In this document: positions 1,523-6,005 of the stretch, in pieces
How positions within the stretch are numbered: position 1 is the first letter of the stretch
Layout of the letters: each line of letters begins with the position of its first letter
IMG/VR virus record: IMGVR_UViG_2698536387_000007
DNA: 6,005 bases
Strand: one strand, 5' to 3'
Source: a virus
Taxonomy: Duplodnaviria > Heunggongvirae > Uroviricota > Caudoviricetes
Made by a program: the position numbers and the translations under genes
Notes under the pieces: model-generated
What the model saw: the letters and a program-made list of their open reading frames with translations, nothing else
The model's database searches: none
What the model was told of the DNA's origin: nothing

Positions 1523-1657
1523 TCAGCGGTGGCGAGGGATTTCTCCCCCGCCTGGTAATCGTACCTCGCAGAGGTCTTTCCTCGTTACCAGTGCCGTCAC
1601 TATGACGGTTAAACAGATGACGATCAGGGCGATTAACATCGCCTTTTGCTGCTTCAT
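1523..1657 (-). CDS. hok: Hok/Gef-family type I toxin, variant with the conserved C-terminal tail replaced (44 aa; possible deletion derivative or pseudogene)
   Basis: MKQQKAMLIALIVICLTVIVTALVTRKDLCEV matches the Hok/Gef/RelF transmembrane region as I remember it. SD AAGGAGAAG lies upstream of the ATG at 1657. The ORF then reads RLPGGGEIPRHR and stops, instead of the family tail (roughly IRTGQTEVAVFxAYE). The track's longer ORF (start 1714) is an in-frame leader extension, mok-like in position. Confidence 0.8.
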   Translation of the reverse strand: MKQQKAMLIALIVICLTVIVTALVTRKDLCEVRLPGGGEIPRHR

Positions 1658-1670
1658 AACCTGCTTCTCC

Positions 1671-1699
1671 TTGCCTTTCGGCGCGTAAGAGGCTAACCT
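1671..1699 (+). promoter_or_regulatory. Candidate promoter for the Sok-like antisense RNA
   Basis: Plus-strand TTGCCT (1671-1676), 17-nt spacer, TAACCT (1694-1699). This is antisense to the hok leader and start region, at the position where the R1 sok promoter lies as I recall it. The -10 is weak. Confidence 0.35.
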
Positions 1700-1705
1700 A
1701 CGTTT

Positions 1706-1780
1706 GTGAAGCATAGATTGGGCCTCAGATTAATGTTAAGCGTCTTGCAGGACGCGTAATGTTAACTGGGGCTTTTCTCT
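1706..1780 (+). ncRNA. sok: Candidate Sok-like antisense RNA (type I antitoxin)
   Basis: Predicted start about 7 nt after the -10. The region is antisense to the hok leader, including the upstream in-frame ATG (1714..1712) and its SD. A structured segment (outer stem CCUCAG/CUGGGG at 1723-1728/1765-1770, inner stem GCGUC/GACGC at 1740-1744/1751-1755) is followed by the U-rich tail CUUUUCUCU (1771-1780). Boundaries are approximate. Confidence 0.35.
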
Positions 1781-1832
1781 GTCTGCCTTACGGTGGCATG
1801 CCCGAGGCAGACAGCCTCAAGCACCCGCAGCA

Positions 1833-3896: not shown

Positions 3897-4595
3897 TTAC
3901 CCGTTATCTCCTGTCGTTATTTTCTGTATGACATCACGATGCTTATTAATTTCCCGCAGCGCGGCGCATAAGCGCTCCCACTTCTGAACCTGACCTTTTG
4001 CCCGGCGCAGCTCGCGGTTAGCCACATGCAGCGATGGTAAAATCAGACCATCCGGATGCTTTCTGATGAACGACGACTGTGACTGCACTGTGACCGCCAC
4101 ACTTTCAGTTTTAATTTCTTCCTGTGTTTCCGCTTCCCGGACTGGTAACGCAACACCTGCCGGCTGAGGAAAGGCTTTACCATCGGTTTCCGTTACCGAT
4201 GCAGCTTTCGGCTCTGCCGGTAAATTATCGCCCGGTATGCAGTAACGATATTTACCGTCCTGATTTACGCGAATCAGACGACCTTTGCTGACAGCCATCG
4301 CCAGTGATGAATTCGCCCGGCGGGAGGTAATCCCGAACATTAACGCCAGTTCGTCAGCCGACTGAGGACCATGCTGTTCAATCGCGTTAATCAGCATCTC
4401 TGCAGTGGTTTTTGGGGCCGCTTCAGTTGCCTCACTCGTCAGCCACCACATCGACCCCTTGTTATCAGCTTCGCCACGACGCTTCAGCTTCCAGAGTTCG
4501 GTAACAGCATCGTCACGGCTGATTTCAAGACGGGCTGCAATCTCGTGCGACGAGGCTTTTTTCAGTGCTTTCAGTGCGTCAAAAACGGTTTCCAT
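3897..4595 (-). CDS. Winged-helix protein, Ren-like in domain and position (232 aa)
   Basis: Start chosen at 4595..4593 (METVFDALK...) because of the strong SD GGGAGG with 8-nt spacer. The track start at 4661 would overlap the P-like gene by 32 nt. Two winged-helix-like segments; the second ([42 protein letters not shown]) resembles lambda Ren from memory. It sits directly after the P-like gene, as ren does in lambda. Confidence 0.6.
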
Positions 4596-4629: not shown

Positions 4630-5292
4630 TCAGACAAAACCGGCCGCCTTCCGGCGCTCATATTCCTGTTTCAGCAACTCAATTGGCGTTGGCCCTGGCG
4701 GGCGTTTGGGTGCTGCCAGTTGTCGCCGGACTGGCGGAACACTGAGGCCATTACCAACATGCTTTGCCCATTTCGTCAGCTGCCTTTCCACAAGCCGTTT
4801 TAACTCCCCTTCGGTCATCTGGCGCTCAATCCCCTTTGAACGCATCTCGAGGCAAATGTGGTACAGCACCGGCTGTGGCCACGGGTATTTATCACTCCCG
4901 TCGTACCGCCAGGATTCATTCCTCCAGCGACGGTATTCCTCCATCACGGCATCCACCGTCAGGCCAAATGGATTTGCCCCGCTCTCCGAAATCAACGCCA
5001 CAAACTCAGCCAGATCCGGAGGCCACGTTTCACCCGCCCGGCAGCGGTCCATGCACCGACGGCAGATCTGCCGAATTTGCTGTTCAGTCATCGCGCCAAT
5101 CTGAGCAATCCAGAGTTTCGACGGCGCAGCCCCGTTCTTCTGAGTCCAGCGGTTCGAATACACCTCCCCCATAAGCTCCCACAGCTTCCAGGCCGTTTCC
5201 GTTGCTGATAAATCCGTTTTCACGTTCCCACTGTTCGCGTGCAGCCCGGATTTCCTGAACTGCCCGTGATGCGGTGCCACCTGGTGCTGCAT
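4630..5292 (-). CDS. P: Lambda P-like replication protein (DnaB helicase loader)
   Basis: C-terminal two-thirds match lambda P as I recall it (TEQQIRQ..., [21 protein letters not shown], similar length). ATG at 5292..5290 has a good SD (AGGGGGT, 5-nt spacer). This start implies a 208-nt overlap with the O-like ORF; alternative in-frame starts are at 5172 and 5091. Confidence 0.75.
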
Positions 5293-6001
5293 GGCTTACC
5301 CCCTTGCTGACTGGTTTTACCTGTGCCCTGACGTGCTGCACGTGGCGGGCAAATTTCTGCTCCCACTGAACCTGCGTGAAAACCTTCCCCTCCGCCATCC
5401 AGTAATCCCGGAATGCGGCAAGCTCAGCAGGTGTAAACTCAGGCTCAGGCAGAGCCATACCCCACACTGCTGCCCGCTGTCGAAAATCCGGCGACGGTTG
5501 CCAGACTCCAGTCATCGGAAATTTCCCGATCGGTTCGCTCAGGCCGTCCAGGTATTCAGGTTCGGCTGTCTGCAACGACGCGTCATTCAACTCACCGGTC
5601 GTAGCACTCTCGCGCATGCGCGCGTTATGTGTGGGGTTTAATTCTTTATCTGTATCTGTATCTGTCGTGATTTGTCGTGACATATGCGTGACGCGTCGTG
5701 ACTCATCGTGACAATCAGTGTTCTGCTTCCGCAGTCTTTCCCGCTCCCGCTGCGCTCTCTTGCGCTCTGCCGGGGATTTTGCGGTTTGCGAAACATTACC
5801 GTTATCCTCCTTCATCACCTGGCGTTTTTCCCATCCGGAAATAAGATCACCATCCAGAACTCGCCCCTGCATTGCATGCAAAATTGAATCAATCACGTCT
5901 TCCGTCACATCAAGCGCACTTGCTAAATCTTCCGTCGTGACATCAATGTGACCACGTAGTGACACGCCGTGACATGTCGTGACATTTCGTGACGCACTCA
6001 C
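5084..6001 (-). CDS. O-like replication initiator with iterons inside the coding sequence; 5' end may lie beyond the window
   Basis: 305-aa ORF directly upstream of the P-like gene. The visible start is GTG at the window edge and the frame stays open to position 6005, so the true N-terminus is uncertain. An N-terminal HTH-like segment (DLASALDVTEDVIDSILHAMQ) and a basic/TDTD linker are encoded by the iteron DNA. The C-terminal segment is W/F-rich (FRDYWMAEGKVFTQVQWEQKF). Confidence 0.6.
   Translation of the reverse strand: MSASRNVTTCHGVSLRGHIDVTTEDLASALDVTEDVIDSILHAMQGRVLDGDLISGWEKRQVMKEDNGNVSQTAKSPAERKRAQRERERLRKQNTDCHDESRRVTHMSRQITTDTDTDKELNPTHNARMRESATTGELNDASLQTAEPEYLDGLSEPIGKFPMTGVWQPSPDFRQRAAVWGMALPEPEFTPAELAAFRDYWMAEGKVFTQVQWEQKFARHVQHVRAQVKPVSKGVSHAAPGGTASRAVQEIRAAREQWERENGFISNGNGLEAVGAYGGGVFEPLDSEERGCAVETLDCSDWRDD
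5649..5722. repeat. Iteron array A: ori-like direct repeats with GTGA(C/T) core at 10-11 bp phasing, plus flanking ATCTGT repeats
   Basis: GTGA(C/T) begins at 5667, 5677, 5688, 5698 and 5708, with a degenerate copy at 5718. ATCTGT x3 lies at 5648-5665. The array falls in the linker-coding part of the O-like ORF. Confidence 0.6.
5937..5998. repeat. Iteron array B: six direct GTGAC-core repeats at 10-11 bp phasing
   Basis: GTGAC begins at 5937, 5948, 5959, 5969, 5979 and 5989, consensus about GTGACAnnnC, same orientation as array A. It lies at the 5' end of the O-like ORF and encodes the low-complexity residues 1-22. Confidence 0.6.
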
Positions 6002-6005
6002 CAGA

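Follow-up and report, generated by a model that had tools for sequence, protein, structure and literature searches.

The 6,005-nucleotide (nt) stretch of virus DNA held in IMG/VR as record IMGVR_UViG_2698536387_000007 (Caudoviricetes), analysed at its full length and called here the window, contains near one end two groups of short, helically phased direct repeats, both inside the gene of a replication initiator. One of them, array A, lies in the linker between the two domains of the protein and the other, array B, in DNA coding for its N-terminal domain (N-domain). The question raised by this locus is what a second set of repeats does within that coding sequence. The original prediction, made from the letters of the window alone, had considered that both arrays might loop or hand-cuff, or that array B might be an operator or even the true origin. 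The reading that we favour, and to which we give about an even chance on the strength of sequence comparisons, is that the repeats of array B are initiator-binding sites (iterons), a second cluster located in the coding DNA of a hairpin loop, which together with array A and a tract rich in adenine and thymine (AT-rich) would form a bipartite origin; this is because A occupies the canonical position of an initiator site beside the AT-rich tract and B shares the core of A.

Six GTGAC cores at 10-11 bp were present in array B, as originally predicted. On the plus strand they start at 5937, 5948, 5959, 5969, 5979, and 5989 (spacings of 11, 11, 10, 10, and 10 bp, mean period of 10.4 bp), whereas on the coding strand the core is GTCACG and the consecutive units are GTCACGAA, GTCACGAC, GTCACGGC, GTCACTAC, GTCACATT, and again GTCACGAC. 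This arrangement was far beyond chance: the longest phased chain of any 5-mer in 500 shuffles of the window had three members vs. six in array B, the window contained 24 copies of GTGAC vs. 11.6 ± 3.2 in shuffles, and arrays A and B were the sole phased chains of three or more members in the whole prophage (49 kb). Array B was also, as had been proposed, a second array of the repeat of array A in the same orientation. The coding-strand units of A are GTCACGAT, GTCACGAC, GTCACGCA, GTCACGAC, and ATCACGAC (plus-strand GTGAT at 5667 and GTGAC at 5677, 5688, 5698, and 5708; period of about 10.3 bp), with 229 bp from the last core of A to the first core of B and 281 bp from first to first core on the coding strand. 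A further pair of GTGAC copies, 11 bp apart, occurs inside the DUF1627 gene (positions 4079-4094, plus strand); its flanks are unlike the TCGTGAC consensus, such pairs appear in about 4% of shuffles, and it is probably due to chance.

Array B could not be set aside as non-coding DNA. Upstream sequence located the real start of the initiator gene outside the window, as had been suspected, with its ATG at the window-equivalent position 6121, 116 bp past the window end, preceded by GAGGTGAG; the full coding sequence comprises 345 amino acids. All homologs, from 51 genomes, start with M-x-N-x-W-L-R-L-W-H-D-M-P-N-D-P-K-W-R, which confirmed the annotated start. The GTG at 6001 is Val41, and the apparent first 22 residues, taken before for a low-complexity leader, are residues 41-62; this leader was therefore an artefact of the window edge cutting the gene. 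Nor did the stretch turn out to be regulatory instead of coding, as array B codes for a conserved loop of the N-domain (SRNVT..RGHxDVT). On the other hand, a repeated peptide cannot explain the array, since repeats spaced by 10-11 bp do not keep the codon frame and the core is consequently read in all three frames (as N-V-T, C-H, V-S, G-H, and D-V-T).

Synonymous sites were compared in a gap-free alignment of 19 diverged homologs sharing the GTCAC core, including those of Salmonella, Shigella, Rahnella, Serratia, Chromobacterium, Aquitalea, Bordetella, Pseudomonas, Acidovorax, and Gilvimarinus. Outside array B these sites were near saturation, with entropies of about 1.9-2.5 bits for Pro, Leu, and Arg codons. 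Third-position identity was 0.76 in array-B codons vs. a mean pairwise value of 0.41 along the domain, and the normalised synonymous entropy was 0.16 in the 12 array-B codons vs. 0.80 in the 57 others (Mann-Whitney p = 2.7e-7). Thus, along the array the same codons were retained almost without exception: Ala GCG (17/19), Ser TCA (18/19), Asn AAT (17/18), Val GTC (19/19), Thr ACG (19/19), Gly GGT (19/19), His CAC (18/18), Asp GAT (13/13), Val GTC (19/19), and Thr ACG (18/19). Among 80 near-identical prophages a single recurrent protein variant was found, NVTKCHGESL, whose two amino-acid changes fall at spacer bases and leave all six cores intact. As judged from these alignments, array B is under purifying selection at the DNA level in addition to its coding role. 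A conserved N-terminus encoded through repeats that drift in the DNA had been named beforehand as the result that would speak against iterons; the conserved N-terminus was indeed found, but the repeats were conserved at the DNA level beyond what the protein requires, so that the iteron idea survives.

In order to follow both arrays across the family, we scanned one genome per species with a profile of the N-domain. The scan gave 51 loci, and 51 genes, including four fetched earlier, could be analysed. Two same-strand arrays of the top phased 5-mer were present in 40 of these 51 genes, belonging to several proteobacterial orders, at gene nt of about 125-165 (B) and about 335-500 (A). The commonest core class was GTCAC(G); (C)GAACGC appeared in ten loci, and a GTAACG or G(T/A)AACGCA core in six (L002, L003, L027, L029, L034, and L038). 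Arrays A and B shared their core class in 41 of 41 callable genomes (label permutation p < 1e-5, kinship ignored). These classes were not simply clades when the rest of the domain was compared: L034 (GTAAC) was nearest to GTCAC loci, L024 (GTCAC) to the GTAAC loci L003, L027, and L029 (81%), and both L002 and L038 (GTAAC) as well as L043 (GTCAC) to GAACG loci, which indicated at least four apparently independent switches of A and B together. In L030 the shared core is mirrored even by the peptides, ASNATERGRTQ in the loop and QPNATERDQTP in the linker. The copy number of array B varied by steps of 21 bp, that is, two repeats or seven codons: most genera, together with Salmonella bongori and Shigella, had four repeats, and the window has six owing to the extra peptide TCHGVSL. 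The loop tolerated from 0 to more than 20 extra residues; the Pseudomonas locus L043, with a loop more than 20 residues longer, had GTCACG three times in direct and CGTGAC three times in inverted orientation, one after another, at gene nt of about 140-235, a naturally much enlarged B cluster. Comparison of the homologs thus shows array B as what appears to be a cis-acting DNA element with the core, orientation, and phasing of array A, and with a specificity that changes along with that of A. As a separate observation, the divergent family members L041 (a Serratia metagenome-assembled genome) and L053 (Pantoea) had no arrays at the B and A positions and displayed instead two phased arrays of (A)CTACGTA, at gene nt of about 327-347 and 651-671 in L041 and about 330-372 and 643-690 in L053, the first of them in an inserted domain (YVYYV...GISRNP) that is GIY-YIG-like in appearance.

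These results bear on two alternatives. It could be thought that the conservation serves something other than DNA binding, such as the protein loop itself, codon choice or translation rate, or an element of the mRNA, the likeness to array A having arisen by duplication or conversion. The loop peptide SRNVTRGHxDVT is well conserved in its own right, the rare codons CGA and CTA are present in the loop, and both arrays lie on one transcript; nevertheless, protein need cannot fix synonymous positions, a role in codon usage or mRNA predicts neither the co-switching of the core with A nor the 10.4-bp period, and the two arrays have only their cores in common, with different spacers, which indicated that there was no recent gene conversion tract. 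Rfam families gave no match at array B, the sok RNA being the sole match in the window. We regard this explanation as improbable. Even less credible, and in our opinion very unlikely, is the binding of array B by another protein, either a host factor or a phage regulator such as the YdaT-like or the Cro-like product. Genes located upstream do code for DNA-binding regulators, but B always shares its core with A, which is in the canonical initiator-site position beside the AT-rich tract, and the core tracks the lineage of the initiator from Enterobacterales to Burkholderiales and Sphingomonadales, a range that does not fit a single host factor. The simplest reading is that the N-domain of the initiator would bind both arrays.

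The opening site is best placed at array A and the AT-rich tract of the (GATAMA)n type that directly follows it, the tract being a probable DNA-unwinding element. In this prophage the proportion of guanine and cytosine (GC) was 0.325 beside A (L001 4140-4179, equivalent to positions 5639-5678 of the window) and 0.45-0.55 around B. When the first 700 nt of each initiator gene were scanned, the lowest-GC window of 30 nt closely followed array A in 38 of 40 loci, its start falling -8 to +66 nt from the array end (median 6.5, and about 0-30 nt in most loci), and none of the 40 loci with two arrays had an AT-rich tract adjoining array B. At least three helically phased direct repeats, as expected for an iteron origin, occur in A (five) and in B (six), whereas the adjacent AT-rich unwinding element that such an origin also has is found at A only and not at B alone; B corresponds instead to what is expected of control iterons, being an additional cluster of the iteron of A located away from the opening site. 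The suggestion that replication starts at array B, as the true origin or as a second, independent one to which A is accessory, is therefore very improbable. In its favour are the higher number of repeats in B than in A in this prophage and the existence of two separate origins in phage SPP1 (PMC6316719). Against it stand, besides base composition, the lineages that keep A and lack B, the reverse never being observed in the survey.

The AT-rich tract, too, is a repeat within coding sequence: its hexamers, translated as DTDTDK or DKDKDK, number from 3 to 9 depending on the genome (for example, at gene nt of about 360-420 in L039). Here as well, a disordered segment of the protein is shaped by a DNA element. 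Directly after it lies a GC-rich element (positions 5608-5641, coding strand ...GAATTAAACCCCACACATAACGCGCGCATGCGCGAGAG) that includes the palindrome GCGCATGCGC, codes for LNPTHNAR(M/V)RES, and is kept also in P0116 and P0118, whose N-domain is unrelated. The DNA was identical over TTAAACCCCACACATAACGCGC in the five of five loci carrying the element, where the N-domains were 51-95% identical. In the comparison of DNA constraint, the element TTAAACCCCACACATAACGCGCGC beside the AT-rich tract was found in these 5 loci only, and their C-terminal halves are recombinationally related. It could be a part of the origin (its right boundary or a loading site) or reflect mere recombination of related C-terminal halves. 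Three terminator-like hits corresponded to the GC palindrome beside the AT-rich tract, on the non-coding strand.

Inverted copies of the core near array B had been part of the original prediction, together with a 10-bp palindrome, and both held only in part. Among the inverted GTCAC copies one was exact and conserved, whereas the other, at 5892-5896, reads only ATCAC and was not conserved in homologs. The exact copy, in the LDVTE codons 33 bp after the last B repeat, was present in 19 of 22 loci of the GTCAC class, with GTG as its Val codon in 16 of 16, and the inverted core was kept even where the peptide had changed (DVSDE in L013, DCDDE in L022). L003 and L029, of the GTAAC class, have GTT as this Val codon, so that the motif becomes GTTAC and again matches their own core in inverse orientation; the loci of the GAACG class had no inverted copy at that position. 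In the GTCAC lineage the B cluster accordingly comprises 4-6 direct repeats and, about three turns from them, a single inverted one. As for the palindrome, it exists but is at chance level, and its codons were not conserved at synonymous sites; with 8 ten-bp palindromes in the window vs. 5.6 ± 2.5 expected, it was rejected as a functional element.

The inverted copy is relevant to the most serious rival, according to which B binds the initiator but acts negatively, as an autoregulatory roadblock or operator in the initiator gene that limits transcription of the initiator and P-like genes, or as a control cluster pairing with A or with arrays on sister molecules. We consider this possible, though somewhat unlikely. 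The evidence for initiator binding (synonymous constraint and match of the A and B cores) is the same under this explanation. Moreover, B is near the 5' end of the first replication gene of the operon, so that all transcripts of the initiator and P-like genes cross it, it has no AT-rich tract of its own, and the conserved inverted copy recalls the inverted half-iterons that are the operators for dimeric plasmid Rep proteins. Control iterons are also known to restrain initiation in plasmids P1, F, and RK2. Conversely, a consensus scan for promoters gave nothing overlapping B and no sigma-70-like site anywhere in L001 3900-5450, which leaves no place for a classical operator acting by promoter occlusion. 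The inverted copy sits inside the reading frame, 214 nt after the ATG, and therefore not over a promoter that was found, as an inverted repeat in a Rep operator would be. In addition, array A would already be a roadblock on the same transcript, restraining copy number has no obvious value in lytic phage replication, and the GAACG class lacks the inverted copy.

We favour a positive action of array B by looping, which in the bipartite origin could proceed as follows. Initiator monomers would first bind along one face of the helix at A and B alike, where the sites are phased at 10.4 bp; protein-protein contacts would then join the two arrays, with looping or wrapping of the intervening DNA (about 224 bp), and this would raise the occupancy of A and add torsional stress. 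The AT-rich (GATAMA)n tract beside A would then open, and the DnaT-like C-terminal domain (C-domain) and the lambda-P-like protein would recruit DnaB.

Several points weigh against this interpretation. The co-variation of cores and the synonymous constraint, both read from sequence, are equally compatible with a positive role and with a negative one (autoregulation or hand-cuffing), and a role at the RNA level, given that both arrays lie on one mRNA, is excluded by the argument of helical phasing alone. Because the core classes are phylogenetically structured, independent events must be fewer than the agreement of 41 of 41 genomes suggests. L044, L050, and L032/33/39 had array A but no recognisable B (some of them being AT-rich or divergent), which indicated that B is dispensable in some lineages. 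Nor are the arrays a fixed distance apart, as had been assumed: the gap between B and A had a median of 224 bp and ranged from 153 to 314 bp (214-350 bp from first to first core), with non-integral and differing numbers of turns and no common helical phase, and this weakens a rigid-loop model. Finally, no binding or replication study of this initiator family was found in the open-access literature.

The initiator protein was characterised by profile and structure searches. A DnaT-type domain binding single-stranded DNA, in the C-terminal half (PF17948), was the sole match among Pfam and NCBIfam families, and this C-domain matched the DnaT structures 4ou6 and 6aeq with Foldseek (E about 4e-6). 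The Pfam scan gave no Phage_rep_O match, and no match at all for the N-domain; by these profiles, the initiator is not a homolog of lambda O. The whole protein falls in 'replication initiation protein' families of PHROGs, with weak matches to replisome-organizer or DnaD-like families (E = 5e-8 to 9e-4), and its name in the NCBI source is 'phage replisome organizer'; sequence and context mark it as an initiator-type protein, whose gene is followed by a lambda-P-like one. A sequence search for a solved structure of the N-domain found none, and Foldseek gave weak winged-helix similarities only. An AlphaFold2 model built on an alignment of 55 sequences displayed predicted local distance difference test (pLDDT) values above 90 for residues 11-40 and 61-100, with a helix at 29-45, a short beta-hairpin at 47-56 (pLDDT about 78-80), helices at 63-70 and 74-84, and a wing; the N-domain is, according to this model, winged-helix-like, and is followed by a long helix and then a disordered linker (145-184). 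Array B (gene nt 129-186) codes for residues 43-62, that is, the helix end and the hairpin loop preceding the helix-turn-helix, and array A for the end of the long helix and the start of the disordered inter-domain linker. In E. coli prophages the DnaT-like C-terminal half, with its conserved LNPTHNA junction, was joined to N-domains of three or more unrelated kinds (the probable replisome-organizer type of this initiator, DUF1376 as in the YdaU-like protein of Rac, and a third type in P0116 and P0118), and this modular shuffling falls at the linker that contains the origin.

In the N-domain, which is otherwise highly conserved, the columns that best tracked iteron class were those of the B-encoded loop and of the basic tail after GW.KRQ. 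This leads to a further idea, which we put forward as doubtful: the iteron may be read, wholly or in part, by the very hairpin loop that array B encodes, so that the same 50 bp or so would be both site and specificity code. If this were true, one change in a repeat would alter site and reader together, which would explain the concerted switching of both arrays and the protein on several occasions and provide phages with a compact route to new replicon specificities (incompatibility or immunity types).

The bipartite origin proposed here shares several traits with known systems. As in the lambda origin, it would lie inside the initiator gene, between the N-terminal DNA-binding and C-terminal domains, with direct repeats followed by an AT-rich tract and a loader gene of the P family (PF06992) immediately downstream. 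Lambda differs in that its iterons are about 19 bp long and have internal symmetry, whereas the units described here measure 10-11 bp and lack dyad symmetry; in the Phage_rep_O match, absent from the present initiator; and in the second array inside the N-domain coding DNA, which to our knowledge lambda does not have. Iteron plasmids (P1 incC/incA, F oriS/incC, RK2 oriV) and phage P4 (ori/crr) combine an opening site with accessory clusters of the same repeat, and looping or hand-cuffing between clusters is an established mode in such plasmids. In them the repeats measure about 19-22 bp, and the clusters are found flanking the rep gene or in non-coding stretches, in contrast to the present case, where both clusters are in a reading frame, the repeats are of 10-11 bp, and the setting is the module of a lambdoid prophage. 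The origins of staphylococcal pathogenicity islands (SaPI) have two sets of short iterons flanking an AT-rich region downstream of rep. They resemble this locus in having two short-iteron sets in one mobile-element origin next to the initiator gene, whereas here the AT-rich tract is outside the pair (in the order B, about 224 bp, A, AT-rich tract) and both sets are coding. Another parallel for repeats inside the initiator's own gene is SPP1, in which gp38 binds direct repeats of oriL within its gene, beside an AT-rich unwinding element, and two separate clusters of binding sites exist, oriR being about 13 kb away with its own AT-rich region (PMC6316719). In the present prophage the second cluster is instead about 224 bp off, in the same gene and without an AT-rich tract; no third, distant cluster like oriR was found in its 49 kb, and the sequence similarity of the initiator to the SPP1-type family is marginal.

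Iteron origins within initiator genes are thus already known, and what would be new here, in our analysis, is a bipartite intragenic origin with a dual-coding second array. No description of these repeats was found in the open-access literature, including the paper on replication modules of Shiga toxin phages (PMC8044961), an older one being possible, and phage records carrying the initiator gene, such as that of Tritos, have no origin annotated. The same bases appear to serve a protein loop and an array of phased DNA-binding sites at once, with the DNA function dictating codon choice and even loop length, and such dual coding would be misread by annotation pipelines and by analyses of the ratio of nonsynonymous to synonymous substitutions (dN/dS). 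The arrangement also defines a likely origin (B, about 224 bp, A, and AT-rich tract) for a widespread and unstudied family of prophage initiators, which combines the probable replisome-organizer N-domain with several alternative C-domains and occurs in E. coli O157 prophages, in the inducible coliphages Tritos and Evi, and in phages of Pseudomonas, Aeromonas, and Ralstonia. B can be recoded by synonymous codons with the protein intact, so that its cis function is separable, which is rare for origin elements, and the co-switching of iteron class offers a natural series for the evolution of initiator-origin specificity. The coordinates of the features are collected in Table 1.

Table 1. Features of the initiator locus, in positions of the window.
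Feature	Position	Strand	Description
Array B	5934..5993	-	Six direct repeats at 10-11 bp, coding for residues A43-T62 (ASRNVTTCHGVSLRGHIDVT)
Array A	5664..5712	-	Five direct repeats of the core of array B in the inter-domain linker; probable core iteron set
AT-rich tract	5637..5665	-	GATACAGATACAGATAAAGAATTAAA (coding strand), (GATAMA)n type; directly downstream of array A
Inverted core copy	5904..5908	+	Coding-strand GTGAC within the LDVTE codons; the last repeat of array B lies 33 bp before it
10-bp palindrome TTGCATGCAA	5872..5881		Codes for LHAM; outside the element, at chance level
Initiator gene	5084..6005, runs past the window edge	-	N-domain of probable replisome-organizer type, linker, DnaT-like C-domain binding single-stranded DNA
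Lambda-P-like helicase-loader gene (PF06992)	4630..5091	-	Follows the initiator gene, with an 8-base overlap at the end of the latter

The window comes from a lambdoid prophage of E. coli O157:H7, in which it represents the early-right region; positions 5500-6005 matched NZ_AP018488.1 at 100% identity, as they did several hundred further genomes. The initiator, lambda-P-family, and DUF1627 genes are all on the minus strand. A spacer of 68 bp separates the initiator gene from the ydaT-like gene, further upstream of which lie a Cro-like gene and a divergent LexA/CI-like gene. The prophage carrying the module in that genome (L137, NZ_AP018488.1 2672000-2721000) is inserted at a tRNA-Ser gene beside mtfA and is apparently defective, with frameshifts in the genes of tail tip J, tape measure, portal, and large terminase, a truncated major capsid gene, and an integrase interrupted by IS1203; its replication module may be intact, and the same module is present in the isolated phages Tritos and Evi. 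The window also contains a toxin-antitoxin locus of the hok/sok type (1523-1826, minus strand), in which the sok RNA was recognised by Rfam at 1652-1826 with 114.9 bits, overlapping a hok/mok-like open reading frame at 1523-1714 (hokD in the matching genome).

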